A DNA stretch of 64,000 nt from Chrysochromulina tobinii. Its lineage: Eukaryota. Location of the stretch: positions 1-64,000 of the forward strand of contig JWZX01003118.1 of assembly GCA_001275005.1 (NCBI GenBank), in the 5' to 3' direction. The notes beneath the pieces were generated by a model that made no database searches, had not been told where the DNA came from, and saw only the letters and a list, made by a program, of their open reading frames with translations. How positions within the stretch are numbered: position 1 is the first letter of the stretch; every line of letters begins with the position of its first letter. A program made the translations under genes and the position numbers. Shown piece after piece: positions 12,320 to 56,100 of this stretch.

Positions 12320-13787
12320 TGCGCCGCCTGCTACCCTTGCCGCCCTTGCCTGCGCCGCTCACGGCCGGCAGTGGCTCGGCGACCTTCCAGTCGTCGAAGA
12401 GGCTCGTGGCGAGCAGCTTCGCCTCCTCGGCTGTCGATCCGCGGTGGTCGAGTAACGGCTGCACGTGCATGCGCATCTGACGAAACCCGAGCTCACTGAG
12501 CGTCATCAGGGGTCATCAGGGCTCATCAAAGGTCATCAGTGGCACTCACCTGACGAAACCCGAGCTCGAGCAGGCGTGCGTACGAGCGCAGCGCGAGGCC
12601 CGCCCCGATGACCTGGTCCGCCGCGCCGTTGAACGTGACGATGCGCAGCGCCTCGCGACCGGGCGCGGGCGCCGGGGTGACCGAGTACAACTGCCCAATC
12701 GAGCAGAAGAGACAATCAGCGGCCATCAGCGGCCATCAGCGGCCATCAGCGGCCATCAGCGGCCATCAGCGGCCATCAGCGGCCATCAGCGGCCATCAGC
12801 GACCATCAGCGGCCATCAGCGGCCATCAGCGGCCATCAGGCGAGATCGCACCTGCCCAATCGAGCAGAAGAGGCCGCCCAGGCACTCCTTGTATGTGAGA
12901 GCAGCATCGATCGCGCAGCACGATCCTTGCGACTGACCGAGCAGCACGAGGCGCGACGTGTGTCCCGACAGCCGTGCCGCCTCCACGTCGAGCACCCGGT
13001 GCACCTGCCTGCGCGTCCACTCGAGGTGCGCCGTGTCGAGCTCTTCCTCGAGCTCGGGCTTTCCCTCCTCACCGCCGTGGTCCGTGAAGTAATCATGCCA
13101 CGCCGCGTGCCGCTGCCGTGGCTCGCCATAGCATGAGATGCGCCGCTGCGGGGCCTGCAGGAAGACGAAGCGCACGTGCGCGTCGGGCGGCTGCTCGCTC
13201 GAGCCGAGCTCAGCGGAGAGCATCGGCAGCAGCGTCTCGGCGTAGTTCTTCGCGTTGTCCGTGAAGCCGTGCATCACGCTGCCGCCAACCGAGGGCACGC
13301 GGGAGATTCGGGTGACCCGTCAGACGCGCGGAGATGCCAGAGGATGTACTCTGGGCAAGGGGTGGGGCAGGTCGCGGGTTCGACGGCGGCTTCCGTACAC
13401 GACGGTCGCGCGGTGCACCGCCGTGGGCTCCACGATGTGCGGTGCGGGCAGCGACGCCGGCGATGCTTCGGAGGGGTACTTGCGAGCTGGAGGTCTATTC
13501 TCGGGTGCTGGGGCTTTGGCGGATGTGGCCTTGGCATCGATGGATGGTATCGGGTTCAGTGAGAGACCGATGAGTTTATCGAGAACTTCGAGCTGTCGAT
13601 CGTCCTCATCCTCATCATCAACGACCAAAGTGGCACCAGGTGCGGCTGCGGGCGTGGCACCCGGTGACGTCTTGCGATTGCGGCGCGGGCCTTTCCGCTT
13701 GCCGCCAGAACCAGGCGTGCGCGGCGTTTTCGAATCACCGGCTGTATTCGGCTCGGCGCTTGGCAAAAAAACCTCATTCTCCATCAT
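11883..13787 (-). CDS. Phospholipase/carboxylesterase (APT1-like alpha/beta hydrolase) with C-terminal zinc-finger-like motif; exons 13787-13399, 13278-12852, 12690-12550, 12476-11883
   Basis: The spliced product reads HRATVV|VMHGFTD...RFVFLQAP...AWHDY...GQSQG (nucleophile)...SIGQ|LY...NGAADQVI (Asp)...GFRQ|MRMHVQPLLDH (His). GT-AG introns 13279-13398, 12691-12851 and 12477-12549 restore the frame. Confidence 0.85.
12271..12318. repeat. (CCG)n microsatellite encoding poly-Gly in the carboxylesterase
   Basis: About 16 perfect CCG units. Confidence 0.9.
12714..12840 (-). repeat. Intronic 10-nt tandem repeat (GGCCATCAGC)n, i.e. GCTGATGGCC on the sense strand
   Basis: About 12 near-perfect copies filling intron 12691-12851. 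Confidence 0.9.
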
Positions 13788-14047
13788 CTCGGCACTCGGC
13801 TCCTAATCGGGAGTACTTTCATATTCACGCCTCGCACACGTTCACAAATGGGTTTTTTCGATCCGAAGACACCGGACCGGCAGACATAAGGAGGCAAATC
13901 ACACTACACTACAGTACCGTATGACGAAGCCGCGGAGCATTCACATGTTGAGAAAAGGTGCAGAGAAAAGTGACTCAATTATCAATGGACAACGACTCGC
14001 ATCGACCATCGTTGTTCGTTGATACGACGCGAGGGGTCGCACAGCCC

Positions 14048-15547
14048 TCAAGTCCGTGCGAGCCCATCCAGCATCCTCCCCCTCGCGACCGCCGCGTCGA
14101 TGGCCGCCTTCTCCTGCGCCGTCAGCTCGAGGGCGAGCGCCCGCAGCGAGTCGCGTCGGTGGTCCGCCCCCGGCACGCCGCCGAGGCGCACGCCCACGAT
14201 CGCGGCGAGCACGTAGGGCAGCTGGAGCACGTACGCGAGCGCGACCACAGCGATAGGCGCGCCGCCGCGGGCGTCCACGTGTGCGTCACCCACAGAGCGC
14301 AGCGTGCGAAGCAAGCCCTGGAAACGCTCCCAGTCTCCCCACGCTCGAATCGACGCGAGGTAGTCGATTTGCTTCGAGTGGTCGGCGTCGGGTATCGGCG
14401 GCGGCTGACCGAGGTACCTGTCCGAGAGCAGCCCGCCCAGAAGTGGACCATACGCCACAAAGCGGCACCCGCGCGCCGCGCAAAAGGCGCGCGCCGCCTC
14501 TGCTGGTCTCACGAGTAGGTTCGTCTCTTGCTGCACGGTGGCGACCGGGACGACGCTCGCTATCTGCTCGAGCATCGCAGGGCTGTAGTCCTCCACGCCG
14601 TAGTGCCATACGCGCTGTGCGCGGCGCGCAGCCAGGTACGCGGCCAGGTTGGCCGATTGGAGGGCGGGAGGCCCCAGCTGTGGCACTCGATGGCACTCAA
14701 CGGCACTCAGCGGCACTCAGTAGCTATTAGCGGCACTCAGCGGCACTCAGTAGCTTATTTGCGGCACTCAGCGGCACTCAGTAGCTATTAGCGGCGGCAC
14801 TCAGCGCACCTGCACCCAGCGGAGTGCCTCCATCCCGAGACGCGCCTCGAGGAGTTCCAACCCTTGCTCCACCTCGTGCCCACGCTCAACAATGATCGAG
14901 TGCGCGAGCGGCACCGCCGCCGCAGTCTCGTTGGCCTTGGTCGCGCGTCGATGCGCTTCGAGGGCGGAGAGCACACGCTCGTCGAAGTCCTCGCCGATCC
15001 AGCTACCCAGCCCAACCGCGTCGTATCGGCGCATGCCCTCGACCACCCTGGTCGCGTCCACTTCGTCTAATGGGCTCGAGTACGCGCGCCAGCGCCGTGG
15101 GTCCAAGAAGGATGTCCAGATCCCATTGAGGATGGGGCAGATATGCACGGTTCGATCGCCATCACCGATTGTGCGCAGGTACGGCAGGCAGCTGGAGTTC
15201 ACGTCGTCCTCGAACTCTATGCCGTGCACGGCCGCGGCCGTGCCGCCGTCGCTCATGGCCACTCCAGCCGGCGCAGCGCGTGAGGTGCCGCCCGAGGCGG
15301 ATATGCTGTATGCTCGCGTGGGCGCGTCGGCAGCCGGGCTGTCGTCGGTGGCTCCGGGATAGCCGGCCTCGCCAGGCCGGCATAGAAACTGTGCGCCCGA
15401 ACAGCCACTGCACTCCATCTCAACTGCTCCATTTAGCACCGTACAAGGCTCTGTGCACCAAGGTTCGCAAGGGCCGCCATTGCGAACCTTGTAGCCATGG
15501 CATTCCGCTGCGAGCCACACGACCATCATCATGACCATGTTTGCCAT
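14048..15547 (-). CDS. Aldo/keto reductase-like protein with signal peptide and Cys-rich N-terminal module; exons 15547-14810, 14677-14048
   Basis: VATVQQETNLL, AYGPLLGGLLSDRYLG, VALAYVLQ..V.AAIVG and LELTAQEKAAID. Intron 14678-14809 (GTGCG..CAG), filled with CTGAGTGCCG repeats, joins WVQ|LGP in frame. Confidence 0.75.
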
Positions 15548-16085: not shown

Positions 16086-17625
16086 CTACATCTCCGTGGC
16101 GCCCCTCTCCGCCTGCTTGAGGTGCTGCGCGTTCGGGTCGAACCCATCCTTGCCAAGGTAGTCGGCCGACATGAGTTTGATGAACTCATCCTTGGACAGG
16201 GTTTTGGCGTCGCCGTCGTTGTCGCAGAAGTCGATGAGGCCACTGATAAGGCGGTCGGGCAACATCTTGCTCATGCCAGTTAGGAAGCGGCGCAGCTCGG
16301 CACGGCGCAGCAGGCCTGAGCCGTCCGCATCGATGGTATCGAAGGCCTCTGAATAGGAGGAGAACCGAGCGTTGATCACCTTTTTGAGTGCCTTGTGGAC
16401 GTGGCGGAGCTGGTCGATGCTCGGGCCCGTCTTGCGCAGCTTTGGATGGTAGCCCTTGCCGAAGCCGCCGAGCGCCTGCTTGCGTCGCAGCTCCGCCATC
16501 TTGTGCTTGTCCAGCTCGAGCTGCACCTCCTTGGGGTCCTTGGTGCCGAACCCAGACACATCCGCCTGGAGCGTCTGCTTGAGGTTGGTAATGTCATCGG
16601 CGGTCACGAGGCGCGCAAACTCGGCAAAATTGATCTGACCGTCGCCATCATAATCGGCGAGGTCGATCAGCTTGTCCATGACCTTTTCAGGTACGGCAAG
16701 GTTGAACATCGCATTGAGCCTGCGAGGTGTGAGGCACAACGACACCGTAAGAGCTGTGGGGCGCAAGGCTGTTGGGGGTCGGGCGGTTGAGAACATCGGG
16801 CGGTTGAGAACATCTGTTGCAGCGAGCGCACATGTGCTTGAGCTCGCCGCGGTCGCACTCGCCCGAGTTGTCCTGGTCAATGAGACGGTATGCACGGCGG
16901 ATCTCGCCGAAGCGCGTCTCGAGCAAGCGCTTGATCGTGCTGTGCCAGTATATGAGTTCCGAGGCGGGGACCTCGTCCTTGGCCTCGAAGGCCTCGCCCG
17001 CCGCCGCCGCCTGCTGCTGTTGCTTCTGAAGCTCCGCGTACTCCTTGAGCTGGTTGAGCTGCTTGCGCGTGTACGGAAGCTGGCCAGGAAAATCACCAGG
17101 CGCGTGCAGCTGTGGATACGGGATGGACTTCTGGAAGCTGTCCCACAATACTCCCCGGGGCGTGCCATTCACGTCCCGGTTTGCAATGAGGTTGGAGGTC
17201 ATGAAGCCGGTGCTGTTGAACGACTGAAGCCCCACCTCGACGTTCTCCATCTTTGCCAGCTTGCAAGCAAGCTCCAGGTCCCGGGGCGAGACCACGCTGC
17301 CACCATTTGCAGCGGTGGCGAGCAGCTGCTTCAGCTTGTGACGTTGCTTGTTGTGCGCGATGCGAATCCGGGCCTCGTTGATCATCTCGTTCTCGGACAG
17401 GCCCGAGACCGGTGACTGCACGTACAATCGCCCACCACCTCGAATCTGCGAGAGCGGCGGATACGGCGCCGTATGCGGCCGGAATTCTCCCATGCTGCGT
17501 GGGCTGAGCGAGCCCGCCATGCTGCGTGGCGAGAGGCCTGGCGGTTGCAGGGGCTGAACGAGCCGTGGGATCGTCGGCCCACGCGGAGTCTGAGCTCGCG
17601 GCGACATCATTCCCATGGGCATCAT
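16086..17625 (-). CDS. Multi-EF-hand calcium-binding protein; exons 17625-16832, 16719-16086
   Basis: EF loops DQDNSGECDRGE, DYDGDGQINFAE, DADGSGLLRRAE and DNDGDAKTLSKDE. GT-AG intron 16720-16831 joins KHM|LNAMF. Confidence 0.85.
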
Positions 17626-18960: not shown

Positions 18961-19631
18961 CCTCCTCGCGTCCAGGGGCGCCAGCACCGACCAAGTGCAC
19001 CGCGCGTGTTTCCTCCCTCGCGGACACGGATACGCCGGGCAAGTTTCGCGTCCAGTTAGAGTGTAAAACCCGAGGAACTCGGTACACAAAGGAAGGTAAT
19101 TTGGTCCTTGCGAGGTCCTTGTCCCAGTTTCCTCACTACAAAATAAAACTAGGTCCCTTCTTCGTCCCTGCATCCTCACCAACCCGTTGCCACTCAAGCG
19201 GCAGAGGTTGCTCGTGGTCACTTGCCTGATGGTCGAAACTGCTCACATAAATTGTTCCTCAAATGGCTCGATACACTAATTTACTACGAGCTCGTACCCC
19301 TTATGCCCAATATCCCAAACGGCCGGTAGACTCGGCTGCAACCCCTTGGAAGGGTTCTGATGGCTCTTCACACGGTGGTTCACGGCCGCTTGGTCCGAAG
19401 CGACCGTCCGTGGGGCGGCTTTGACTGCAGCGGCAAGCGCTGTTCGGCTGCCGCGTCAGGCCCCTTCGCGGGGAACACCTCCGCCGGCGCGCCTACGCCG
19501 CTTTAACAGTGCTTAGTGCTTTTTGCCTGGAAGGTAGATTGAGGCCTACTCGCTTTAACAGTGCTTTAACATGTACTCCCTCCTTTGATGTTTGAACGGC
19601 TTTTATTTGATTATCAACTTGACGAATCTCA

Positions 19632-24206: not shown

Positions 24207-26503
24207 TTAAATCCGATCGGCCGGTCCTCCCTGCACCCGCCGCTGCTCGCGGCGTATGCGTTTCATGGTCTTGTCCACGTTCATCGCGATCGCCGCAGCA
24301 TTCGCCGTGGACACGCGCCGCATCGGGACCTCGATGACGCCGACCTCCTCGCCGTTGCCGTCGCCGTTGCCGTCCTCAGGGCCCTCGGTAACCTCTGCAT
24401 CAATGGTCATGCGCGTGGTGGTACTCGTAACCTCGTGGATGGTCACTTCCGCCTCCACGATCTCCCTTTCCTCACTGCTGGAAATCTGGAGCTGCAGCGC
24501 GCGTCTTGCTGGCGATGTCGGCGTGGCGTTATGCGGCCCCACGTACTCCGTGCGCAGCTCCGCATCGTCATCCGCATCGTCAGGCTGTTCTGCCAAAGGA
24601 AGTTGGCTGCTGCCACCATTCGCCTCGCGCATCGCACTCGCCGGCAGCTTCGGCATACTCGTAGGCACACTCGTCGCGGGAGAACTCGCCAGCTTCGGTG
24701 AGGGCGGCTGGGAGAGGACGCTCTCGCCGATGGCCGCCTTGATGGCGCTGTCCGCGGCATGGGCAGCGACGTTGACGCCGCTGAGCGATCCTTGGAAGGT
24801 CCCTTCCCACGTGTCTCGTCTTTGCAGTCTGCGGCTTGCCCTCCTCTGGAGGCTGCCCTGCTGCGCGCCATTGGACGACGAGCCCATCGAGTCGTCGGTC
24901 ACGCCCACCGCGCGCTGATGCTCGGACTGGTCCGAGTTGTCCTGGAGAGAAGGACTCGCCCCGTTCATGGCGGTAGTTCCTGACGTGAGGTCGGCCGCCT
25001 CGCCGCCCGCATCGAGCACATTCTTGAAGTTGGGTCTCTCTTCTTTCTTATCAATGACATTCTTATCAAGGTCCATCGAAGCCTTCGCGATTATGTAGAG
25101 CCCAACCAGCACGAAGACCATGCCAAGAAAGTACAAGACCCAGCTAGCCGCGACCCCGACCGAGCACGCCGGGTTCGGACCAAATTGGCATGTGCCCATG
25201 AGGAGGAACTCCTCGAAGAAGATGCCACCCGCAACCTGGGCGGGCAAGCGGTGCGGTCAGCGGAGCACGCGATGCGGGGCGGAAGAGGGGGCTGGGGGGG
25301 TGGCGGGAAACTGTGCGAGGCGGGGCGGGAGAGGGGGCTTGGGGGTGTGGCGGGAAGCTGTGCGCGCACCCCGCCGAAGAGGATGTACGTGCCGACCATG
25401 AGGGGCAGGATGAGGAGCGGGTTGTACAGGCCGAGGCATTCGGTGAGCTTGACGATCCAGATGATGCCACATGCGACGACGAGCACAATCTCGACGTAGA
25501 GAAGCCAGCCCATGAAGATGGACAGATTGCCCTGAAAGATCATCGCAAGGAGCTCGGAGAAGACTTTAGACTGCACAATCATCTGGGCGCCGCCCGCGAG
25601 CGACGAGTAGAGAGTGAAGGAGACCGGCAGCACCATCTCGTGCGCCCAGGGCTCCGGCTCGCCCGTCTGGACGCGAACGAGCTTCATCTTGCGCGTGTAG
25701 ACGATGTGGGTGACGTACGATCCTATCGCGATCGCGAGGGAGATGATCAGGTACACCAACCAAGTCGGTCTGCTCCAATAATTCTCGAGCGTCCGGACTG
25801 AGTGGCACGGGACACCGACTGGGCCGAAGATGACGGTGAACACGGTGCCGAGCACCGTGAGCCACGTCCCGCCCTGCATCGCCCACGAAATTTTCGCCTT
25901 GTTGACAAACTTGTTGTAGAAAATGTTGGTCACGAACTGGATGCTCTCGAGCGGCGTCAGGATAGACGCCGGCGCGAGCGCGAGCGCCGCAAAGTTGATC
26001 AACGAGAAGCCGACGAAGATGACCATCCCCCAAATCCAGAGCTTACTTTTATGCGGTTTTGACTTGAGCTCTTCGGGTAGCTCATCGAGGGCGGTAGCCT
26101 GCATGTTCTGCCCCACGTTGATGCCAATCGAGCCAGCAACTCCCATCAGGACGCCCACGCCAAAGCCCCATGCAGGCAGCGCCGTGCACTTGAGGCCGGG
26201 GTCTGACCAAACGGCATCGACCAAGGTCGCATTGTCCAGGGTTTCGTTGTACAAACTCACATTGCTCGTCGCGTTGTTCGTGGCGTTGAGCGGCGGCGGC
26301 GCTAGGGGCGGGGTCAGCTGTGGCAGCGGAGGCGAGGGTGGCGGCGGCGAGGGAGGGGGCGAGGGTGGCGGCGGCGATGGTGGGGGCGAGGGTGGCGGAG
26401 GCAATGTCGGCGGCAGCGGAAAGGGTTGCGAGGCCACCATCTGCACCAGCCCCAATGTGACGCTGCGCAGAAGCAGCCCACGCCGGCGGCTGTGCCCTCG
26501 CAT
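24207..26503 (-). CDS. NIPA-family (DMT superfamily) Mg2+ transporter-like protein; exons 26503-25370, 25235-24207
   Basis: GSIGINVGQNMQ, LWIWGMVIFVGFSLINFAALALAPASILTPLESIQFVTN and about 9 TMs. GT-AG intron 25236-25369 joins LFGG|VAGGIFFEEF. Pro-rich ectodomain. Confidence 0.82.
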
Positions 26504-26659
26504 TGAAATAGCTCTCAGATCGCCCGCCGCGCCGTCGGCAATGCGGTTGAACTACTGTGTTGAACTTCGACTATGATGTATCTCGCGAGCCTGGGACGGA
26601 TGCCCAAAATACCCGTGGGGATGGGGCGATCTTTCCCGCCGGCTCGGGGCCTTCGGGCG

Positions 26660-38600: not shown

Positions 38601-41600
38601 CAACGGCTCCCTTCGGTCACGCACCACAACACGAGCGTGTGGGACGACTTGATCTGTGCGCGCTCACGTCTGCTCGCCACGCTCCACCAGGCGACCCAAG
38701 AGCGCCTCAAGAGCTTCCAGTCGGGCCGCACCTTTGTCGACGGGCCCCAGCAGGCGACTCTGCTCAAGGCGTTCGAGCGGGAGCGAAACCGAGCGATGCT
38801 AACGCTGTATGAGGCGGCCGCCGCCGCCACGCGCGACCAGGGCAACTTTGGCGCGGCGGAGTCGTACATACGCGAGTCGGGGAACCTCCGACGCACCCTC
38901 GGGCTCACCAAAGACGACCCGTCGTTTGCGTGCTCTCTCTACCGTCTCATGCTGCAGCGCGAGCAGGCGCGCAGTGCCGAGGACGGTGGCGGTTGGAGCA
39001 AGACGCTACGGACGGTGCACACTGACGCGCAGCGCGTGGCCGCGCTCGTGGGCACCAGCGGGCCGAATGGCACGGCAGCCTCCCCGGCGGAGGTGTGCGA
39101 GCTCCGCACTGTACAAGCTTACGTGGCCTGGGAGCTCGCCGCATTGCCCTCCGCTGGCAGCGGGAGCAGCGCCGAGCTCACGGCGGGCGGCTCAACAGCG
39201 AGCGATCTCGTGCGTTCGGCATACGACCTGCTCAAGCAGAATGCGTCGCAGGCAGAGGGCCTGGGCTCGACGGCGGCGGACCTCAAGCGCCACGCGGCGA
39301 TGAGGCTTGAGCTCGTCGACCTCATCGACAAGGTCCTCACGTCGCCGAGGGCCGAGCTCTCGCCCGACGCGCTGCGGCTGCACAAGGCGGAGCTCACGGC
39401 GGTCGCGATTGAGCAGGTGGTGCGAGCGATGGCGGCTGGCTCACTCGCGGCTCGCGAGCGGCTGCCCTCGGCGCTTGCGCTCTGTCGTGGCGCGCCGGAG
39501 CTTTGGGCGCAGGCGACGGAGCTGCTCGAGCTGCCGCCGCTCTGGATGTCTCTCGCGTGGGCTCCGCAGATGATCGCCATGCTGTACGAGCCGCACGGCA
39601 CGGTGGTCGCGCCGCTGCTGCAAAAGCTCACCGCCGCCTACCCACAGGTGATTGCCTTTGATTGCCTTTGATTGTCTTTAATTGGACTTGATTGCCCCTC
39701 GATGGTCTTTGATTGCATTTGATGACCCTCACCGCCGCCTCCCCGCAGGCTCTCTACTTCCCGTACCACGTGTCTCGTGCCGCGCTGACCAAGGAGCTCA
39801 AATCCTCCGAACAGGCGCCGGGCGATGAGTCGGTCGCACCGCGGGCCGCCGCACTGCGCGCGATGGACAAGGCGCTGAGCTCGCCCATCATCGAGCGGCT
39901 CGTGGCGGGGCTGGCCGACCTGACGCACCCACACCTGCGCATGCAGGACTTGCTCAAGGAGCTCGTCGCCAAGCTCGAGGACGGCGACGGCGAGGGAGCG
40001 GCCGCTGCGTACCGGGCCGAACGCGCCGCATGGTTTGTGGAGCGTAAAGGAGCAGATGGCAAGGATGAGCGCGGCGACATGGTCATCAGCTTCGCCAAGC
40101 AATTCGTGCCGATGCTCGACGCGGTCTGCGGCAAGGACGGCGACAAGCTCAAGGTTGGTGCACCAGCCCTCAAGCCGCTCAGGGACGCGATCAGCAGGCA
40201 CATGAGCGCCGACATTCTCAGGGAGTGGGAGCTTCAGAGGGAGCAAAAGGCGTTTCGTCCTCATCAGGACGGCTCATCGCCGCTCAAGGCGCTCTCCTCC
40301 TTCCTCGCCCTCTACCAACGCTCCGATGCGGCCGCCGAAGGGCCGCTCGACTTCCTCGAGCTCCCCGGCCAATACGCGCGCGACACGCCGCCGCAGCCGA
40401 GCACGCACGTACGCCTCGAGGGATTCGCGCCGACGCTCCGAACGATGGCGTCGCTCCGTAAGCCCAAGTGCATCGTGCTGCATGGCTCGGATCAGAGGGA
40501 CTACCGCTTCCTCGCCAAGGGGGGCGAGGACCTCCGAATGGACCAGCGCGTGCAGATCCTGTTCGGCTCGATGGACCGCGCGCTGCACGCGCACGCGCCC
40601 GCGTCCAAGCGCGACCTCGGGCTGCGCACGTACGCGGTGTTGCCCCTCTCGGAGCACGTTGGCATCATCGAGTGGGTGCCGGACACGGAGACACTCAAGG
40701 GCCTGATCTCTAAGGAGGCCAAGGTCCATCCGATGGGCAGGGGCCCCAAGGGCGAGCCGTGCGATGAGATGGCGCAAGGATTTTACCTGACGGAGCTCTA
40801 CCCTCGCATCAAGGGCGACGCGACGGACTACCTCGGCAAGCTCAACGTGCGCCGCGAGAAGCTCGCCGCCAAGTTCACCGAGATTGTGGAGAAGGTGCCT
40901 GCAGATCTGCTCCAGCGCGCCGTCCACAAGCGCTCCGTCTCGTCCGAAGTGTACCTGGCGATGCGCGCGCGCTTTGCACGCTCCCTCGCGACCCTCACCG
41001 CGTGCATGCACATCCTGGGCATCGGCGATCGTCACCTGGACAACTTTTTGCTCCACACGCCCACGGGCAACGTGGTGGGCATCGACTTTGGGCACGCGTT
41101 CGGGTCGGCGACCTACCTTCTCCCTGTGCCGGAGCTCATGGGTGTGCGGCTCACGCGCCAGATCACAACCTTCCTGCGCCCGCTCGACACGCCGGTGCTC
41201 CTCAAAGGGCATATGGAAGTGACGCTCGAGGCGCTGCGTGGCCGGCGGGTCGACCTTATGCGCCTTCTCGAAGTCTTCCTCTCCGAACCCATCGTCGACT
41301 GGGAGGCCCAGACGCGTAAGCTCTCCGCTGAGCAGCGCAACAAGCTCGAGGCCGAAGCAGTGACCACTCAAGAGGGCGGGGCTGCCGCGCTGCTCGTCGC
41401 CGGCTCGGCCGTGCCCGATGCGGCGGCGCGTGGCGGCGTCAGCACCAGCTCCGGCGCCGCCCACGGCGGCGCCCACGGCGCCAGCATCAGCAGCGCTGCT
41501 GCGGCGGGTCGCAGTGCCAGCCGGCCCGGAAGCCTCGCGCCGGGGGGCACTGCCGTGACGCTCGGCTTCACTCGCAAGTGGGCGCATGAGAGGCTCCGTG

Positions 41601-41854
41601 CGGTCGAATGCAAGCTGCGCGGCGGCAACTCGGCGAAGCTCACGCTGCGCGACCTCGAGGCGTCGAATAACGGACACGTGAAGAAGGCGCTCGCGTCGCT
41701 CGAGGACGTGGTGCTCGGCCCCAATGGCTCGCGCAGAAGGGAGTGCGCGGCCGAGAACCTGACGGTGGCCGAGCAGGTCGACGTACTCATCGAGCAGGCC
41801 ACCGATCCGAACATCCTCGGGCGCACGTGGCAGGGCTGGGCGCCGTGGCTGTGA
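26660..41854 (+). CDS. PRKDC: DNA-dependent protein kinase catalytic subunit (~5000 aa); introns at ~36854-36947 (donor uncertain) and 39648-39748
   Basis: HEAT-region motifs PHISGFYRL, VLPRVVELA..EKAAACELL, HPSPMHRLG, YRELRE, SQ/TQ cluster and YRKGELPDVEI. Kinase region SLRKPKCIVLHGSD..FLAKGGEDLRMDQRVQ, ILGIGDRHLDNF and IDFGHAFG. FATC end EQVDVLIEQATDPNILGRTWQGWAPWL. YPQ|ALYFPY is restored by splicing. Confidence 0.93.
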
Positions 41855-42112
41855 AGAAGGTCGAGCCTAAGAAATACGATTGTGACTTAGTAGTTTGGTA
41901 GAACGCCCCGGGTACCGTAACAAATTACGTTTCACTACAATAACAGTCACTTGACGCTCATCGACATCACCCGGTAGGAAGCGCTATCAACGATATCTTG
42001 GAATCTACTCCCACTCAGGCGCACAAGTGCAGGCGCGGCGGCGAAAAGCAGTAGTACAGATACGTACGGTCCTCGGTCGACTGTATGCGGGTATGCTCAT
42101 CCGAGGTCATCA

Positions 42113-42166
42113 GGCATGATATGCTCGACCCATGATATGCTCGACTGTATGATATGCTCGACCCAT
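42113..42166. repeat. Short tandem repeat ATGATATGCTCGAC x3
   Basis: Three copies seen directly, downstream of the DNA-PKcs stop. Confidence 0.7.
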
Positions 42167-42387
42167 GCCCAAACCAGCCAAGCTCAGCAACCGCCGATCA
42201 AGTACTGCTCAGACACCACACCGTCCATGAGCACCACAAGTACGCTCCCCACGTCGCCTTCATTGAGATCCAAGGCACTCGCGTCGCTCATGTGAAAACC
42301 CATCTCCATCGCCCAACGGCCAGCTTCCCCTTGCCATGCCCAACCACTGCAGCCTCAGCATGCCATTGAATTCATTCTCAATGCCAG

Positions 42388-42494
42388 CGGATGGATGACG
42401 AACCCCCCGGCGGATGACGAACCTCGGCGGATGACGAACCCCCCCGGCGGATGACGAACTCCGGCGGATGACGAACACCGGCGGATGACGAACG
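42388..42494. repeat. Minisatellite (GGCGGATGACGAACn) x6 between convergent genes
   Basis: Six copies of GGATGACGAAC with short C-rich linkers of variable length. Confidence 0.85.
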
Positions 42495-42610
42495 CTCTCA
42501 CGTTGCTTGGTCGTGGTGAGCAGTTCGAGCACTCCCGTTGCATGCAATTGGAATGCACGCGTGGTGGGCCGAAGAGACGAGCTCTCACCACCCAGACGAG
42601 TTGATGCGAT

Positions 42611-45600
42611 CTAAATGTTGTCGAAGTGGTCGAGGACGGTCAGATCTTGAGCGGAGGACGATCTCGGCATCTTGAGCTCCTTAGTCGAGTGGTTCCGAAA
42701 GTCCTTCGCGTGCTGCAGCTGATTGGGTGCATGCAATGAGGGAGGCAATCAGCATGCAATCCGAAAGTCCTTCGCGTGCTGCAGCTGATTGGGTGCACGC
42801 ACGGCGGTATCCATCAGACGAGGGCGCTCAGCATGCAATGAGGGAGGCAATCAGCATGCAATCATCGCTCACCATATTGATTGCATGCACGGCGTCGCCA
42901 ATCGAGAGGAAGACCCAGCTGGCCTCATTGCCACACTGGTGGGCGACCTTGGAGAGGAGGCCCGAGCGCACCAGCGACCTGATGAGGGAGATCATCAGTG
43001 AGACGTCGTCAGAGGTCATCAGTGACGTCGTCAGAGGTCATCACTTGAGATCAAGGGAAATCATAGGCAATTAGCGTACCCCATGACGGAGTTGTTAGGG
43101 CCCGTGATGGTGAGGATGACTCCGCATGCATTGAGCTGTTCGGTGAAGCAATTAGAGGCAATTAGAGGTAATCATAGGCAATCAGATGCAATCGGAGGCA
43201 ATCAAGGTACCTGCTCGGTCAGCTCGGTGGCTAATCATAGGCAATCAGATGCAATCGGAGGCAATCAAGGTACCTGCTCGGTCAGCTCGGTGGCTAATCA
43301 TAGGCAATCAGATGCAATCGGAGGCAATCAAGGTACCTGCTCGGTCAGCTCGGTGGCCGTCTGGATGAAGGTCGAGTCGACAAAGGGCACCGCGCACATG
43401 TCGAGCACTACGCCCTTGATGAACTGGCAATCCGTCACCTGATGAGGGAGGCCATCGGGCGTCATTAGAGGTCATCAGAGGTCATCAGTGATCATCAGAG
43501 GCCTTCAGAGGCCATCACCTTGGTGGTGATCATGTGCGCCAGCCTCGGAGCGTTCCCAAAGAAGAGGGTGCCCTCTGGCTTGACGATGTAAATGTCCTGC
43601 GCAGGCGCCGCGCTCGTGTACTGCGAGACGGGCGCGTACTGTCCGGAAGGCATCCGGCCCAGCTCGTACCTGATGAGGAAGGTCATCAAAGGTCATTAAG
43701 GAAGTGGTCATCAGGGAGGCGATCAGTGTGGTCATTAGGGAGGTCATCAATGGTCATCAAAGGCAATTGAGGCAATTCGGCCATGAATTATGCAATTCGA
43801 GGCAATTCAAGGCAATTCGCGTGGTCATCAGTGGTCATCAGTGGTCATCAGTGGTCATCAGTGGTCATCAGTGGTCATGAGTGGTCATGAGTGGTCATCA
43901 GCGTACGTTGGCGAGAGGATGTTCTCGACGAGCAGCACGAGGAAGGAGGAGCTCGCCCCGATGAGCAGGCCTATCTCGACGCCGAGGAAGAGCACTCCGA
44001 TAAACGTGGTCACCTGATGAGGGAGGTCATCCGAGGGTCATCAGAGTGCTCATTAGAGGCAATCCATCGAAATCCATCGCAATCAGTGCCCACCCAGATG
44101 AACGCATCCTTGACGCTGTTGACCAGCAGCCACTTGAGGATTCCGAAGTCGATCAGGTTCTGCAGCGCGATGAGCACGACCGCCGAGAGGCAGTTTTGGG
44201 GCAGATAGAAGAAGACCTGATTGGGGAGGCAACATCGAGGTAGTCAGAGGTCCTCGTGGCAATCAGAGGTTATTCGTGGATGAAATTCATCTAGAGGGTG
44301 GGCAGCACTGATCTAATTAGGGAGGTGATCAGAGGCAATCAGAGGGTGGTCAGCACTTACGGGCGCGATGGACGCAATCTTGGTGATGATACCCACGAGG
44401 ATGGCGACGACGAGCACGGAGATGGGTGAGGTGGCCCCGACTTCGTCATTCAGAGCGGTCCGCGAGAAGGAGCCTGAGATTGGGTAGCCTCCGGTGATGG
44501 CTGAGAAGATGTTGGCGAAGCCAAGCGCGACGTACCTGATGAGGCAGACCATCAGTGGTCATCGGGCGTCATCAGAAGGTCACTAGACATCATCAGAGGT
44601 CATCAGAGGTCATCAGAGGCAATCAGAGGCAATCAGGAGCGACGTACTCCTGGGCCACGTCAGAGGTCATCAGTGGCAATCAGAGGCAATCAGAGGCAAT
44701 CAGGAGCGACGTACTCCTGGGCCACGTCGAGAGTATTGGGGCCGAGGTGGGTATTCTTTTGGGCCATGAGCTTCGCGATTGCAATCGACTCGAGGGACAT
44801 GACGATCGTGATGACGAACCTGATTAGGGGAGGCAATCTCAGGTCATTAGAGGTTCTCATCAGGGGCTCTCCGATATGGCTCGATCGTGATGACGAACGC
44901 GTTGATCAGCAACTCCCCCGAGGTGTGCTTCTCGAATTGAGGCCGAACGAAATTGGGAGGATCGCCGAATTCTCCGACGATTCCGATGCCACGTGTCGAG
45001 GGCCACGGCGTGAGGACGTACCTGATGAGGGCGGCCATCCGTCGTCATCAGGCCATTAGAAGCCATCAAAGGCATTAGAGGCCATTAGAGGGAGTAAATG
45101 GAAATAAAGCACGTACGAGGTGTTCCGATTGTCAATCTTCTTTGGCATCGGGACGCAGCCCGGGTTGTCCTTTCCGGGATAGTATCCGGTGATGATTCCT
45201 TGGAAGTTGACGGCGTACCTGATGACGGAGGCCGTCATATGCAATAAGAGGCAAATAGTGACTCTGTAGGGAAACAGCCCACGGCGGCCAGCGGGGCGGG
45301 GACGTATGCTCGCAATGAGTGGTAATCAGTGGTAGCCAGTGGTAGTCAAGTACGTACTAGTACTTGATCTTGGAGCTCGTGTTCCAGGCCTTTGCGTTAA
45401 TCAGTGGTACTCAGTGGTACTCGTGGTACTCATCAGTGGTATCTCTCAGAGGTAATCAAGTACGTACTTGATCTTGGAGCTCGTGTTCCAGGCCTTCGTG
45501 TTGTTCACAATCGACGGTACGAAGATGTTTGCGACGTTGGTGACCTGGTCGTAGTGCTCGCATCTGCCCAATTGGGGAGTTAGGGAGGTGCTCTCAGCAT

Positions 45601-48046
45601 GCAATGAGGGACGCAATCAGCAAGATGCCCGCGGATTTCGCACCCCGGGCTCAAGTAGAGCTTCGACTGCCACGTCACCAAGATGGCGATGATGCAGACC
45701 AGGATCGGGCCGATGAACTTGAACGGCTTGAAGACGGGAAAGCCGTACGCCTAATTAGGGATGCAATCAGCATGCAATCAGCGCAACTTGGGCCCCTTCA
45801 TCCGGCCAAGCTTCGGGTTAGGTGGGGATGCGATCAGCATGCAATAGCATGAAATTAGCATGCAATCGGCGCACCTTGGGCCCCTTCATCCGGCCAAGCT
45901 TTTTGAAGAGAAAGAGGAGACAGAGCCAAACGACGGCCGTCCTGCGAGCCCATCAGAGGCCATCCGATGTCATCCATTGGCAATCAGGGGTAATCAGGAG
46001 CAATCAGTGGCAATCAGTGGCAATCAGAGGCAATCAGAGGCAATCAGAGGCCGTCCGATGTCATCCAGTGGCAATCATCGGAGGTCCGATGTCATCCAGT
46101 GGCAATCAGCGGAGGTGAATCGGGAAGAATCGGGGAAATTCGCACCATGAGGCCAACCCGTTGACCGTCGAGGCGAACTCGATGAGGGAGCCGACGATCA
46201 TGTGGAGGGTGCTTACATTGGTCACATCGCGGCTGAAGCCAAAAAAGGAGCGTAGCTGTCCGAGGCCAATTGTGATTGCGGCGGAGGCTGAGAAGGCGGA
46301 GATAACGGGAGGTGCGAGCAGCTCGAGGATGTATCCGAATTTGGTCACCCCGATGACGAAACTGAAGACGCCGCAGTAGAAGGCGAGCAGGCTCGAGATC
46401 TCGACCTGACAAGGGAGGCAATCAGAGTGTCAACAGAGGGTCATCAGAGGGTCATCAGAGGGTCATCAGAGGGTCATCAGAGGGTCATCAGCATCATCAG
46501 TCGTCATCACCTGCTTCGTGATCAGTGCGGACTGCGCCTCGAGCGAGTTCCACAACGTCTGATTCGCAAGACCGGCAAGGGACGAGTTGGTGGACGCTGC
46601 GACTGACATGCTATCCGCGAGCTTTTTGAGCATGTCGTAATTTGCCTGATGAGCAAGGGTCGAGGTCATCAGAGGGCATCAAGGAGATCATCAAGGGAGA
46701 TCATCGTGGAGGTCATCAGGGCGGTCATCTGGGAGGTCATCGCGGAGGTCATTACGGAGGTCATTACGGAGGTCATCAGAGGTCGTCAAGGAGGTCATCA
46801 AGCTATTGACTCGCCTGGTCCTCAGTCACTTGAGACGCGATCGTGTCGAACGTCAGGAGCGACACGATGGCCACGGCTCCAATCTGCAGCTGCCTCGAAG
46901 TACCTAATGAGGAAGGCGGAGGCCATCAAGAGGCCATCAAGGGGTCATCAGGTGACAGCGATGAGCGTACCAAATATGACGTACATGAAGAGAGGTGCAT
47001 AGTCTGAGTAGAGTCCGCGGATGGCGGGCAACCCAGCGATACCCGCGTACGAGAGGCCCTGTGGCACGATGAGGAGGCTCGCAATCAGAGGCAATCCGAT
47101 GCAAGTAGCGGCAATTTGTGGGCATCAGCAGACCTGCGGCACGATCAGGAAGCTCACCTGTAGCATACACAGACACAGCGCACAGTGAAAAGAGTGCGGG
47201 GGGAGTGCGGGGGGACTGTGTGAGCCTCGGCTGCTCACGGCAAAGCCAGCGCAGATGTCAGGGACGAGCTGCCTCTTCACATCGTACTTGACCAGCCATC
47301 GCAGACAGGGGAAGAAGGACACCTGATGAGGGATGCAATCAGCGGTTGATCAGGAGGCCAACGGGAGGCCATCAGGAGGCCATCAGAGGTCGTCAGAGGT
47401 CGTCAGAGGTCGTCAGTGGCCATCGGACCTGATGAGGGAGGCTATCAGAGAGGTCATCAGAGAAGTCATCAGGAGACCATCAGAGGGACCTCAGAGAGGT
47501 CATCAGAGGTCATCGGACCTGATGAGGGAGGTCATCAGAGGGTTCTCAGTGGTCATCAGTGGCCATCACCAGCACGCTCCAGAGCTTCTGCCGGGGAGTG
47601 TTGCCCTCGGGCTTGAGTTTCTCGAGCGTCCACCTTGCCATAAAAGGGATCCCAAGCGCGGGCTTGGCGACGGCGTCGGGGGCTGGGGTACCGCCGGAGG
47701 CGAGCAGCGACAGCTCATACTCGGCCATCTTCTTCTTCGTCGTCTTGTCTGGCAAATTCAGGTGGTCCATGACGGCCGAAGTCACCAGAGGTCACCAAGG
47801 AGGTCACCAAGGAGGTCACCAAGGAGCTCATCAAGGAGGTCATCAAGGAGGTCATCAAGCTAATGACTCACCTGGCAGGTGCAGGTGGTCCATGACACTC
47901 GCCGACCGCGGGTTGTACACTGCAGGATTGAACTGATTACGGACGCTCAAGGGGCTGGGAGTATCGCGATCGCGGATCTTGGGCTCGTCACCCGCAAGCG
48001 TGCCGGCCGGATCCTTTGCCAGGTCCATCTCGCGTGCCGACGTCAT
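42611..48046 (-). CDS. SLC26/SulP anion (sulfate/bicarbonate) transporter with STAS domain; 22 exons, 853 aa
   Basis: Manually spliced exons: 48046-47872, 47748-47570, 47322-47239, 47157-47134, 47058-46971, 46903-46815, 46645-46511, 46405-46146, 45941-45875, 45750-45644, 45563-45468, 45218-45117, 45021-44899, 44819-44715, 44535-44361, 44216-44094, 44013-43907, 43669-43519, 43438-43337, 43135-43080, 42978-42873, 42718-42611 (2562 nt, all phases consistent). Motifs DICAGFA|VSFLIVPQ|GLSYAGIAGLP..GLYS, FG|TSRQLQIG, PPVISAF, ESIAIAK, QE|YVALGFAN..GGYPISGSFSRTA, and STAS LFFGN...VVLDMCAVPFVDST. Confidence 0.9.
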
Positions 48047-48667
48047 TGGATGTCGCAGCTCCTGCAGCACACGGGAGTCGACTCGCGGCGGTCAGCAACA
48101 CTGAGCCGTCGAGGTGTTTGGAGGCAGCGAGCTGCGCCGACGCGCGCTCGCTGCGCTCAAGAAGTCAGCTGCGTGGTCCGCGCCGGGCCCACGCGTGCTG
48201 CCCAACCTCAGGCCACGAAAGTCGGACGCTATCGGACGCTCGGCCTCGGGGCGCGCGCGCGTGGCAGCAGGGAGGCTTGCAGCGGATCGCGTTCGCGCGG
48301 CCTGGGACGGGAGACGGACTCCACGACGCAAGGGTGGAATCCGGACCAAAATCGCACGCGGGCGGTCTGGCTCGGCCCGGCACGGGCGGCTCGGCACCCG
48401 ACACGTTCCCAGGAGACGTCCATGATATCGCGTTCCTAAATAGGAATTAGAAGAAATGTCAGTTAAATTTTTTCTTGGTAGCGATCAACCCCAATGTGTT
48501 CGTGGGGGGGGTCAACGAACCGCCCATGGGGAGTTCTCGAGCCGCCCGGCGCGCGCGCGTCGCGTTCGTTAACGTCAAAATATCTAGTGTGTCCTCATCA
48601 TACACGTGCCGTCGCTGTCCCTTATGCTGCGCGTCGCGATTGCGAGCGAGGCAGAACCGCGCACGCT

Positions 48668-51684: not shown

Positions 51685-51902
51685 AAATTCGTGTTGAGAT
51701 GGAATACATTGTACATGTAGCGTGTAGAGGTGCCAGTCACCGCATCCGGTATTTGCCGTGTCCCTGAGCAGTCACGGGTCAGAGTCGGGGCGGCTTGTTT
51801 GACAAAACTTGACTGGATGGGCGATTCTCCTGGGGCACGGCAAAAAAGCTCCAAGCCCGGACGGTGCGCCCCGCACGCTCTCACACTGACTTTGGGTTCA
51901 CT

Positions 51903-53096: not shown

Positions 53097-53142
<46 letters not shown>

Positions 53143-56100
53143 AGCGCTCCTTCTCAATGTGTGCAGCCTTGCGCGCGCTCTCGGAGGCCCCGCGACCGCT
53201 GGTGCACCCTGGTGCAGTGCTGCACCCTGGTGCAGTGCTGCACCCTGGTTCAGTGCTGCACCCTGGTGCAGTGGTGCACACTGAAGCACGCCCACTGCAG
53301 TGGCTCAGCAGCACTGCAGTGGCTCAGCATGCAGTGGCCACTGCAGTGGCTCAGCAGCAGCAGCTGATGCAGGTTGAGCTCGTGCAGAATGTGATGCTCC
53401 AAGGGCGTGAGGCATGGCGGCAGATGGTGGTGCTCACGCAACAGCTCGTGCTGCCAGGCCGATGGGAATCAGCTACGGCCGAAGTGGAGAAATTCCACAC
53501 CAACATGCAGCAGTTCGCCGTCAAGAACGCGGAGTTTATCGCTGCGCAGGCGCTGCAGCAAACGCGCGTCAAAGAGCGTGATGCCATTGCCAAGGAGCGC
53601 ACAGATATGCTGCTGGCATACGCAGAGTTCTCGAGCGTCTCCCAAGCTCTTGCACAAGCTCTGAGAGCCCAAGGTGACACATCGAGGGGAGCTGCAGAGT
53701 TCATCAGGCAGGCCTCGATCAGGCAGGCATTGATCTCAAAGCTTCAGAATGCGTGTCGTCTCATGGCAAGATATGAGGCTGGAAAGTGGCATCTCGAGAT
53801 TCTAAAAGCCAATACTCAACGTATGGACTTGAACACTCAGGTTGTAATGGCATCTGAGTTAGCACGCGGCAGAGTTGACTTGCTCGAGAAGCGCGAGGTC
53901 GAGCTGGCATCGTTGGTGGTGCACCACCATCCTAGGCCGGTGGCGCCAGCGCCGCCGCTGCTCATGCGACCCATCCAAATGATTTGCAAGACCCGCGAGG
54001 CGGGGCTGTACAAGCTGCTCGATGAGCTCCTTGACCAGAATGTGGCCATGCAGACACGGGTGGTTGCGGATGATGGTTCCGCTCTGTTGCCAAATCTGGA
54101 TGCGTTCAACTTCGCCAAGACGCATATCTCGGCTGTGCTCGCTTCGGGGCTTCTCGTCATGGCTGCAGAGCTTCGGATGTCTTGGTGGGTGAAGCTGCAT
54201 GTTGAGCTTGTGGTCGCGTACACGCTCACCAGAGGCGTGCGACTTGGCCCGGAAGGTCTCGAGAAGCTGCCGCATGCGCCGCAGCCGGCCGACGAATCGT
54301 ACAGCCGTCTGCACGATTCCACAGCCGTGACGTGCGCCGTGCACCACGCGTGGCACCTGGCGACGGCGCTCGAGTGCGGGCTATGGCGTCGCCTGGGCAA
54401 GACCTCCCTGATCCAGACCGCGAATGATAATGTGGCACTCCGAGCCTTCTTCGCTCGACAGTACGAGCCCAAGCTGGACGCTCTCTGCCGCCGGGTGCAC
54501 CAGTCGAACGTGGGGGTGCTCGCGGCGGCGGGGCTGACCGAGAGACTGCACGCAGCGGCCCTGCACTCCATACCCATCGACCATGCGAAGCTGATGAGCG
54601 CCCTCATTAACGAAGCCTGCCGGACGTCTAAGCCTCCGCCCGTGACGGCGCCGGTAGCTAAGCCTCGGCCGGAGTCGACTCCGCCCGTGACGGCGCCGGT
54701 TGCCGAGCCGCCGACCCCACCTCCTGGGAAGCCACATGGGCAGCCAGAGCAGATGGTGGTGGAGTTAGACGATTCCGAGGACGAGTCCCCTTCGCCTACG
54801 GCGGCGGCAGCAGGAGCGGCAGTAGCTACGGCATCGGCGATGGAATTGCGCCGCATGCCGAGCGCTGTGCCGGGCGTTCCGGACGTGCCGCGCGTTGTGC
54901 CGGGCGTTCCTGACGATGTGCCGGGCGTACCGAACGCGCCACACGCTGTGCCGGGCGTACCAGACGAGCCGAGCGCCCGCCGCCTCGCTCTCGTGCTCTT
55001 GAAGCATCGGCGTCCATGCATCGACTATCTTCTCTCGATGCATCAGCGAGGCTCACGCTACCAAGTTGGGTCCACCGCGCTACTAGTGAGACTCACGCTC
55101 GAAGATTTGGTATCGACTTTGAGTGGTGTCTGTGAGCTGAGCGTGGACCAAACGGTACACTGCCTTGGGCTGGCGGTGCTGAACCACGTGGAGCAGCAGC
55201 AGAAGCTCGAAGAGGCGGCGCTCAACCACGTGAAGCAGCAGCAGCAGAAGAAGCCCGAAGAAGCTCGTGAAGCGTACGCGTTGAAGATTCGTCAAGCCGA
55301 GGCCAAGGCTGAGAAGGCCAAGGCTGAGAAGGCCAGGCTGGCCACGAGGTGGGCCAGAGAGAAGGCAGCAACGACAGCTGCCAAGACGGCTGCCAAAATG
55401 GCCTCGGAGACGGCTGCCCAAATGGCCTTGGAGACGGCTGCCCAAATGGCCTTGGAGACGGCTGCCAAAATGGCCTTGGAGGCTGCCGAGGAGCGTCTGT
55501 GGACCGGCTCGCCGGACAGCGTGGCGGGCCGGTTGCTTCATGAGTCGACGGGATTGGTACGTGGCTCTCCCTGATTGCCTCTGATGAGCTCTGATTGCCT
55601 CCCTCATCAGGTACGTGGCTCTCCCTGATTGCCTCTGATGAGCTCTGATTGCCTCCCTCATCAGGTACGTGGCTCTCCCTGATTGCCTCTGATGAGCTCT
55701 GATTGCCTCCCTCATCAGGTACGTGGCTCTCCCTGATTGCCTCTGATGAGCTCTGATTGCCTCCCTCATCAGGTACGTGGCTCTCCCTGATTGCCTCTGA
55801 TGAGCTATGATTGCCTCCCTCATCAGGTACGTGGCTCTCCCTGATTGCCTCTGATGACCTCTGATGACCTCTGATGGCCTCTGGTGGCCTCTGATGGCCT
55901 CTGATGGCCTCTGATGGCCTCCCTCATCAGGTACGTGGCGGCGTGCCCACCTTGTGTGGGCTCTCCCTCTTGGCCCTCGCCCGGCGCCGTGTCTCCACAC
56001 CGGACTTCCCCACAGAGGGCTATTCCCCACAGGGCTATTCCCCACAGTGCTATTCCGCCCCCCCACTCGACGAGTTCCGGGCGAAGGAGATCACTCGCGC

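Follow-up and report, generated by a model that had tools for sequence, protein, structure and literature searches.

Many repeat-filled introns of Chrysochromulina tobinii place one splice site within a variable-length duplicate of the flanking exon

The closest described systems are introners in which the element brings one splice site and the target-site duplication (TSD) provides the other, reported for a Chrysochromulina sp. TARA MAG and Symbiodinium (10.1101/2022.06.06.494994 / PMC9860276) and for introner classes 4/5 and 6/8/10 of Polarella (10.1101/2020.10.14.339549). An initial sequence-only reading of the locus studied here had treated introners as fixed-TSD DNA transposons throughout, which is too narrow, since non-LTR retrotransposons are the source of ~5% of classified introners (PMC12130899). 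A second related system is intron gain at staggered breaks in Daphnia pulex, where the far intron end carries a direct repeat of variable length (4-12 bp) that matches the end of the adjacent exon, and where young introns later acquire internal duplications (PMC4202315). Further routes include intron transposition or reverse-transcription template switching, which gives a new intron homologous to another, and tandem genomic duplication across AGGT, in which both splice sites are duplicated and the intron is entirely exon-derived (PMC3443670).

Here we describe 25 introns filled with repeats, spread over five genes within a 64,000-nt window (the whole stretch of DNA analysed) from Chrysochromulina tobinii; the sequence-only reading had counted about 25, and its coordinates hold. 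Twenty of them lie in one SLC26/SulP sulfate-transporter gene (Table 1), whose cluster members carry the name sulfate permease and whose 21 introns compare with a reported C. tobinii average of one per gene (PMC4580454). The only intron found in the neighbouring DNA-PKcs gene (~5,000 aa) is 39648, and homologues of the esterase gene carry PF02230. Like introners, these sequences pair one carried site with one from a duplication, form precise introns and have many relatives in the genome, and the Chrysochromulina introner example likewise lacks terminal inverted repeats (TIRs) (PMC9860276). In contrast, each introner class in those reports has its own TSD size (3-8 nt) and is similar from end to end, while duplications here span <4 to 25 nt (perhaps 38), a single repeat serves both polarities and a variable minisatellite forms the body. 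The likeness to D. pulex extends to the variable exon-end repeat and the internal duplications, but duplications here are longer, and the filler is a genome-wide, sense-strand repeat with ready splice signals, taken in one case from another intron. As in intron transposition, one intron (47749) is homologous to another (46646), although only one source end is kept and the other site is an exon duplicate; as in AGGT duplication, splice sites lie within duplicated exon sequence, but the filler is foreign and one site is duplicated.

Table 1. Repeat introns and associated features of the window. Class A matches compare the upstream exon end with the intron end, and class B matches the intron start with the downstream exon start.
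Feature	Coordinates	Strand	Junction match	Remarks
Class A intron, esterase gene	12477..12549	-	18/18, copy of 12550-12567	Direct RNA joint (X13, X17)
Class A intron	12691..12851	-	21/21, copy of 12852-12872	12.5 copies of 10-nt unit
Repeat intron, aldo-keto reductase gene	14678..14809	-	Exon end shares CAG only	Direct RNA joint (X13, X15)
Class A intron, DNA-PKcs gene	39648..39748	+	19/21, copy of 39627-39647	Direct RNA joint
SLC26/SulP sulfate-transporter gene	41912..48062	-		22 exons, 21 introns, 853 aa; CDS 48046-42611; equals 3,277-nt RNA contig
Class A intron	47749..47871	-	22/25 (last 25 nt, upstream exon end)	First 98 nt copy intron 46646; direct RNA joint
Class B intron	47323..47569	-	3 nt	Three acceptor modules, GT after each
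Non-repeat intron	47158..47238	-	First 6 nt identical to next exon start	
Class A intron	47059..47133	-	19/22	Acceptor CAG is a Gln codon conserved in intron-less orthologues
Class B intron	46904..46970	-	4 nt, perfect	
GC-donor repeat intron	46646..46814	-	2 nt, perfect	12-nt unit; probably the template, or else a sister, of 47749
Repeat intron	46406..46510	-	<=3 nt	11-nt unit
Repeat intron	45942..46145	-	No duplication	204 nt here, 82 in L002/L003
Repeat intron	45751..45874	-		Internal 27-nt copy of upstream exon end (duplication across donor)
Repeat intron	45564..45643	-		29/30 nt in common with intron 42719
Class B intron	45219..45467	-	5 nt, perfect	Internal 29-nt copy of upstream exon end
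Class B intron	45022..45116	-	6 nt, perfect	
Class B intron	44820..44898	-	17 nt, perfect	
Class B intron	44536..44714	-	9 nt, perfect (11 in L002/L003)	67-nt duplication across donor, absent from L002/L003
Repeat intron	44217..44360	-	2 nt	Stereotyped acceptor
Class B intron	44014..44093	-	3 nt	
Class B intron	43670..43906	-	5 nt, perfect	
Class B intron	43439..43518	-	4 nt, perfect	
Decayed class A intron	43136..43336	-	8/9	63-nt unit over donor, three copies
Repeat intron	42979..43079	-	2 nt	Stereotyped acceptor
Repeat intron	42719..42872	-		Internal 25-nt copy of next exon start (duplication across acceptor)
Class B intron	55557..55930	+	9 nt, perfect	~Seven 54-nt units, each ending AG then GT

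The repeat-filled segments are spliced introns. RNA contigs back 23 of the 25, four at directly observed junctions and 19 via exact exon sums; an RNA check had been proposed with the sequence-only reading. Of the 21 SLC26 introns, 47749 has a direct junction, and the other 20 are supported by three exon-length sums together with an open frame. The SLC26 model equals its RNA contig (X13 record 3) in length and agrees with it at 6/6 exonic checkpoints; two more piece ends listed for this record fall 1-2 nt inside an intron, the range of junction ambiguity. The remaining two introns are 12691 and 55557, excision of which restores the frame in each case; no joint at 12691 was present among the listed RNA matches, and homologues run straight across its site. 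All 25 introns have U2-type ends (24 GT donors and one GC), with every acceptor CAG or TAG. Contigs of DNA run X7 continue through introns, showing that these are removed from RNA and kept in DNA; run X21 contributed small pieces at low depth. A DNA deletion between direct repeats is an unlikely origin of the RNA joints, because the skipped parts end in splice sites and DNA contigs retain the SLC26 and DNA-PKcs introns. An assembly artefact is ruled out, as locus L001 agrees with the window to 99.99% and the same introns occur in other strains.

One splice site lies within a duplicate of exon sequence whose length varies (4, 4, 5, 5, 6, 9, 9, 17, 18, 21, 21, 22 and 25 nt), with no fixed TSD size and no length mode. 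Taking one splice site from a target duplication is a trait of introners, and a direct repeat of the neighbouring exon end that varies in length is one of staggered-break neointrons. At 55557, the intron start also resembles the first 38 nt of the next exon with an internal deletion. Eight duplications of 9-25 nt stop exactly at the splice junction. For controls, the 25 introns were re-paired with the exons of other introns in 20,000 derangements, with intron 47158 and four ordinary introns kept outside the statistics as separate controls. Against these cross-paired controls, the eight long duplications compare with 0.04 expected, the summed exon-end/intron-end identity was 75 (control mean 40, maximum 52), and the summed intron-start/exon-start identity was 77 (control mean 38, maximum 56). 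The proposal that one splice site is drawn from a variable-length exon duplicate was thus borne out by junction identities well above controls of the shuffled type. In the 17 introns without a long duplication, the class B excess persists (40 vs 28; 4/20,000), and no class A excess is seen (23 vs 23).

The two classes are complementary, as had been proposed. GT or GC directly follows 14/15 stereotyped acceptors versus 2/10 other acceptors, and the upstream exon ends in AG at 3/15 introns with the stereotyped acceptor versus 8/10 of the others (Fisher p = 3e-4 and 5e-3, respectively). Most introns had been assigned to these classes; a duplication of at least 4 nt is present in only 14 of 25, and in the other 11 it is 3 nt or less. 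Because GT/GC follows four of five ordinary introns and AG precedes none, part of the class B signal reflects the normal splice context of this genome.

The intron bodies are tandem arrays and hence low-complexity, in contrast to introners as delimited in PMC9860276. The arrays had been described as 8-10-nt motifs, and they are real, but the unit, built round an 8-nt core, is mostly 10 nt (62/135 segments, with 15 of 20 nt, 19 of 11-12 nt and 2 of 8-9 nt), and it occurs 121 times in sense orientation and never in antisense. YTRAY is the branch-point consensus, and a motif resembling it is found in the 10-nt unit, placing a putative branch site 17-47 nt before the 3′ end in most introns. A stereotyped acceptor is present in 15/25 introns and, together with the last unit, can usually be folded as a 5-7-bp hairpin, for which covariation, judged by eye, is mixed. 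Arrays also differ in length between strains (intron 45942, Table 1). Within the window, no Rfam family matched at gathering score. Two repeat patterns gave 0 matches in viral contigs, and 60 viral-contig matches to a 15-mer were rejected as chance, being single hits with no tandem units at any locus. GTDB genomes gave two matches, of which L081 lacks the repeat context and is attributed to chance; the other, L082, is a 1.4-kb algal-looking contig inside a bacterial MAG, with identical intron architecture including duplications across splice sites.

Similarity between introns is one-ended. The 5′ ends of 47749 and 46646 agree at 33/36 positions (mean 12 over 435 pairs, next best 28), yet this best 5′ pair agrees at 11/30 at the 3′ end; conversely, the best 3′ pairs reach 25-26/30, with agreement at their 5′ ends falling to 8-15/36. 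Similarity near both splice boundaries, a mark of introners (PMC9860276), is therefore absent. Introns 47749 and 46646 align over 81/96 columns (against the L002 copy) and are both preceded by CCAG, and the acceptor of the former has been swapped for an exon-end duplicate; judged by this alignment, 47749 is evidently a copy of 46646. This is the one clear intron-to-intron copy found, and its confinement to one gene is uninformative, since 21/30 compared introns come from SLC26. The RNA-templated de novo repeat addition that had been suggested suits the data less well than copying from introns already present, because loci share whole intron ends.

We compared loci L001-L009 of 80, of which L009 was too fragmentary, and screened the weak matches L010-L080 for the repeat only. 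Close strains yielded no intron-less allele: L002-L004 retain 12/12 of the SLC26 introns that they cover, intron 12691 is present in 15/15 listed ORFs and intron 12477 in 5/5. P0254 and P0256, at 98% identity and possibly RNA-derived, read through the DNA-PKcs site. Distant orthologues, by contrast, lack the tested introns. Of the 21 SLC26 sites, uninterrupted alignments cross 19 in L008, 19 in L005, 16 in L006 and 12 in L007, and a single ORF bridges the DNA-PKcs site in 6/6 members of the nearest other-species cluster (contigs of 16-28 kb). These outgroups are distant (38-52% aa) and intron-poor, so introns may have been lost on their side. The contigs with esterase homologues measure <=2.4 kb and may be transcripts, and they were left out of this comparison; SLC26 exon 8, used as a query, retrieved no homologue. 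At co-opted sites, Gln stands in orthologues without the intron (SLC26 codon 154, DNA-PKcs and most esterase homologues), as does Glu-Tyr at SLC26 codon 544 (3/3 orthologues aligned there). In some strains the duplicate is nearer to the exon, as shown by 11 rather than 9 matching nt at 44536 and by a Tyr retained in P0189.

On balance, we favor the view that new introns arise by templated repair at staggered breaks, in which the end of an existing intron is copied and the other splice site comes from a variable duplication. In the C. tobinii/parva lineage, repair of a staggered break within an exon would copy one end of an existing repeat intron, from DNA or from intron RNA, and would duplicate an exon stretch of between a few and several dozen bases. 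One splice site would thereby be imported, and the duplicated stretch would contain the other. For class A, donor and repeats would be imported, and an exon end in CAG, duplicated, would serve as acceptor; for class B, repeats and the stereotyped acceptor would be imported, and a duplicated GT at the next exon start would become the donor. Since the 10-nt unit carries the branch-point-like YTRAY motif, almost any fragment could supply a branch site. Arrays would later grow and shrink, and more duplications would come to cross splice sites. Candidate microhomologies at the switch points, read post hoc, may fit such repair chemistry. Of the earlier preference for break-templated synthesis over a classical transposon, the absence of TIRs (longest inverted end match 7 nt in 1/25 introns, <=5 nt in 24/25) and the variable duplications stand. 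Ongoing gain is at most a conjecture, as no intron-less allele appeared in any close strain; gain rather than retention would fit the intron-free sites of distant orthologues. More tentatively, introns may breed introns without a transposon: the template could be intron RNA, either excised or nascent, or DNA of the gene itself, with half-introns of repeated branch-point units copied to new exon sites, mostly in the same gene, and the resulting positive feedback might leave a transporter with 21 introns beside a ~5,000-aa gene with one.

Mobile elements were considered in several forms. A TIR DNA transposon or MITE was rejected for lack of TIRs and of a fixed-length TSD, and a Helitron because duplications are present, whereas Helitrons are described as leaving none (PMC12130899). 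A non-autonomous element seems unlikely to us, whether a SINE-like one that depends on a non-LTR reverse transcriptase or an introner of some unknown type; it would leave variable TSDs and a fixed end, the stereotyped acceptor, while its body decays into arrays. Target-primed reverse transcription typically leaves variable duplications, which suits those seen here, and the fixed acceptor with its usual hairpin, the 5,594 contigs of one DNA run that fall on 8.8 kb of the window, and the shared architecture of L082 all speak for such an element, as does the existence of non-LTR introners (PMC12130899). The SINE or non-LTR pattern fits class B, with its 15 stereotyped acceptors, but not class A, which lacks that acceptor and has no stereotyped donor; moreover, bodies do not align end to end, the unit is 10, 11 or 12 nt depending on the intron, and neither a poly(A) tail nor a TIR was seen when looked for. 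We regard as very improbable that the sites were made by ordinary introners of several families, each leaving a short duplication of fixed size, and that the longer duplications and the repeats followed later. Many class B matches are indeed 2-6 nt, and marine Chrysochromulina MAGs contain introners, among them one that has a 4-bp TSD, lacks a TIR and brings the 5′ splice site itself; against this stand the eight duplications of 9-25 nt that end exactly at the junction, the lack of a length mode, and, in the portions of the survey available, the listing of C. tobinii among screened genomes but not in the introner tables.

The alternative that requires no new positions, and which we rate slightly below the non-autonomous element, is that older introns were colonized by a branch-point-like minisatellite. 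A splice site would then have been tandemly duplicated, and a partly spliced cDNA would have removed one of the resulting pair of introns precisely, leaving class A and B footprints. Such duplications are common (inside 45751, 45219, 44536, 43136, 42719 and 55557, and in L082) and one is polymorphic among strains, while the internal copy at 45751 retains GT in L002/L003, so this history keeps some weight; the tested introns are also all fixed among strains, and Emiliania introns reportedly contain 10-11-nt repeats. It nevertheless demands two precise steps per intron and leaves unexplained the 46646 body inside 47749, the absence of tested sites in orthologues, and 21 introns in one gene against the species average of one (PMC4580454).

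Templated repair remains our preferred reading, and the features above suggest that the route would differ from the transposon-made introns known so far. Our literature search, which covered part of the Gozashti 2022 supplements, where a prior description may exist, found no account of these repeats or junctions in Chrysochromulina. The 2013 study of Emiliania huxleyi by Read et al. is said to report introns with strand-biased 10-11-nt tandem repeats, and is not known to describe junction duplications or a mechanism of gain.

The origin of new spliceosomal introns is a long-standing question, for which recent surveys credit transposons. As the 2022 introner screen excluded low-complexity families by design (PMC9860276), a repeat-built class would have been invisible to it. 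Donor intron, target site and duplication are all readable here, in an alga that is kept in culture and of which many wild strains have been sequenced, so that the template (DNA or RNA), locality and rate of intron birth are directly testable. Such a process may also account for the strand-biased 10-nt repeats in haptophyte introns, as reportedly found in Emiliania.

We mapped 25 repeat-filled introns to five genes of the window (see the table), where a sequence-only reading had counted about 25, and found most of them borne out in RNA contigs. All RNA and DNA runs entered as assembled contigs rather than raw reads, and five non-repeat introns of the window served as controls. With its 21 introns removed, the SLC26 model predicts 3,277 nt from end to end of an RNA contig (run X13, record 3), exactly the contig's own length; the modelled exon sums agree with all three gaps separating the listed RNA-contig pieces, and the reading frame stays open over 853 aa. 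Joints were directly observed in RNA at introns 47749 and 39648 (introns are named by lower window coordinate) and, in two runs each, at 12477 and 14678. No RNA joint for intron 12691 was among those listed; its removal restores the frame, as does that of intron 55557. DNA contigs of run X7 retain the introns across 39.3-48.1 kb. The feature is real, RNA-supported and well bounded.

Genes of the window carrying repeat-filled introns
Gene	Strand	Position	Repeat introns
SLC26 transporter	-	41912-48062	20
Esterase	-		2
Aldo-keto reductase	-		1
DNA-PKcs	+	26564-41854	1
Long gene	+	~51.9-60.6 kb	1

Window proteins share 90%-identity clusters with C. tobinii KOO24182.1 and KOO24178.1 and one C. parva protein, which places the window in that group of species, and locus L001, 99.99% identical across 20 kb, is the same strain. 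The 21 introns in 853 SLC26 codons stand beside one intron found in ~5,000 codons of DNA-PKcs. A DNA-PKcs frame shift at ~36862 probably reflects a single-base assembly error in the window, because L001 has one additional base near this point and a related protein reads through uninterrupted. The SLC26 3' UTR holds tandem repeats of 17 nt (42393-42493) and 16 nt (42115-42167), which the RNA contig retains and which bear no relation to the intron unit. Short intergenic stretches at 19408-19501 and 21385 are matched by RNA contigs of two or three runs that continue into different sequence, suggesting dispersed repeats.

Every junction duplication listed in the earlier reading was present on re-check, and junction identity lay far above that in 20,000 cross-pairings of introns with other introns' exons. 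Summed identity was 75 versus 40 in class A, where the intron 3' end duplicates the upstream exon end (CAG) and gives the acceptor, and 77 versus 38 in class B, where the 5' end duplicates the next exon's start, giving the donor, and the acceptor is stereotyped. Long duplications numbered 8 against 0.04 in cross-pairings. With these eight removed, the class B excess persists (40 versus 28) and class A has none over cross-pairings; junction identity is 3 nt or less in 11 of the 25 introns. The classes are complementary, as had been proposed: GT or GC follows the stereotyped acceptor in 14/15 introns and the others in 2/10, with the caution for class B that it also follows 4/5 ordinary introns, while the upstream exon ends in AG in 3/15 and 8/10, respectively. 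The opening 6 nt of non-repeat intron 47158-47238 are those of the exon that follows, which could reflect either an older class B origin or plain donor consensus.

The repeat unit is tandem, as described, and mostly at the upper end of the 8-10 nt first given: 62 of 135 segments measure 10 nt, and single introns have 11- or 12-nt variants of their own. Work by Read et al. in 2013 reportedly found 10-11-nt repeats within introns of Emiliania. In 3,634 intronic bases the unit is found 121 times, always in sense orientation, against 22 times on both strands in the 59,835 other bases. It includes YTRAY, the branch-point consensus, with 2-21 motifs per repeat intron versus 0-1 in ordinary introns, and may serve as a branch point. 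Read as its reverse complement, the stereotyped acceptor matches the unit's first seven bases, and it is able to fold back onto the last unit; at 15 intron 3' ends (e.g. 42979-42998) the two could pair in a hairpin of 5-7 bp, the loop usually being 6 nt, in which a few variants look compensatory and others disrupt pairing. Run X7 places 5,594 contigs on 8.8 kb of the window, and a stray contig (L082) has the same intron build in a different gene; the system is therefore genome-wide. L082 (1.4 kb, from a Gemmatimonas MAG) is probably an algal fragment that was binned with a bacterial genome, because it carries two repeat introns of the window's type; the second includes a duplicate of the preceding exon's end.

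One intron-to-intron copying event is visible. Over its first 98 nt, intron 47749 matches intron 46646, with 33 of the first 36 bases shared (435 pairs: mean 12, next best 28), a global score of 84 (next intron 35) and 81/96 matching columns against the 46646 copy of strain locus L002. Both introns are preceded by CCAG, and at the position of the 46646 acceptor 47749 carries 25 nt duplicated from the exon upstream of it. A 29/30-nt match links introns 45564 and 42719; either pair could descend from a third copy elsewhere. Several switch points share 3-6 bases between exon and repeat, on a post hoc reading.

Duplications also cross existing splice sites inside introns 45751, 45219, 44536, 43136, 42719 and 55557. 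That at 44536 is lacking in L002 and L003, which shows junction-spanning duplication to be active here. Ordinary introns 25269-25364 and 16779-16814 have internal tandem duplications too (46-47 nt; 17 nt). Internal acceptor-plus-GT junctions in 55557-55930 (six) and 47323-47569 (two) resemble a stack of mini-introns separated by zero-length exons and might undergo recursive splicing.

Comparison with relatives gave a divided answer. Exons of strain loci L002-L004 diverge from the window by 0.5-3.5% and their introns by 2.4-6.6%. Each of the 12 SLC26 introns that these loci cover, wholly or partly, is present, with differing array lengths; 12691 is present in 15/15 listed strain ORFs (one a 51-nt version, genuine or an assembly collapse) and 12477 in 5/5. 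No intron-less close strain emerged, but the tested introns are absent from distant orthologues. In the closest DNA-PKcs cluster from other species (six members, 41-50% identity, 16-28 kb contigs) the sequence continues unbroken through the 39648 site, and four SLC26 orthologues (38-52%) span 19, 19, 16 and 12 of 21 sites unbroken, the alignment being loose at poorly conserved sites. The SLC26 orthologues have few introns of their own, at other positions; because the outgroups are intron-poor, the support for gain falls short of proof. Across the six longest duplications, 8/124 bases depart from the exon sequence, close to strain divergence, so the long-duplication introns are young, yet fixed among the strains sampled; well-preserved duplicates are easier to detect, and this biases the estimate.

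We consider templated repair at staggered breaks the best reading, at slightly better than even. Templated copying would repair the break and insert one end of a repeat intron already present, a variable-length duplication would supply the second splice site, and selection would retain precise products. The data show splicing, the junction duplications, the coupling of the two classes, a single copying event and turnover of the arrays, while intron gain itself, the chemistry of repair, use of the unit as a branch point and the kind of template are deduced from them. That introns copy themselves free of any element is a tentative and rather unlikely proposition. A SINE-like or other master element seems unlikely; neither we nor the earlier reading found terminal inverted repeats. 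Remodelling of old introns, in which crossing duplications would yield identical footprints at old positions in two steps, is slightly less likely still. Fixed-duplication introners changed afterwards are highly improbable.

In the portions of the literature available, these introns work like one-site introners (PMC9860276; 10.1101/2020.10.14.339549), but show neither their end-to-end similarity nor their sequence complexity, and lack a fixed target-site duplication or terminal inverted repeats. The earlier contrast with introners stands on variable duplication and missing inverted repeats, not on introners being solely DNA transposons, as those of non-LTR origin are known (PMC12130899, in part). 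Variable junction repeats are common to Daphnia break-repair introns (PMC4202315), and intron-to-intron homology to intron transposition (PMC3443670), in the parts available. The introner screen included C. tobinii, absent from the tables examined, and discarded low-complexity families (PMC9860276). The sections seen of the genome paper give about one intron per gene and leave these repeats unmentioned (PMC4580454); those of PMC4028052, PMC12480563 and 10.64898/2026.08.08.743475 hold nothing further bearing on them.
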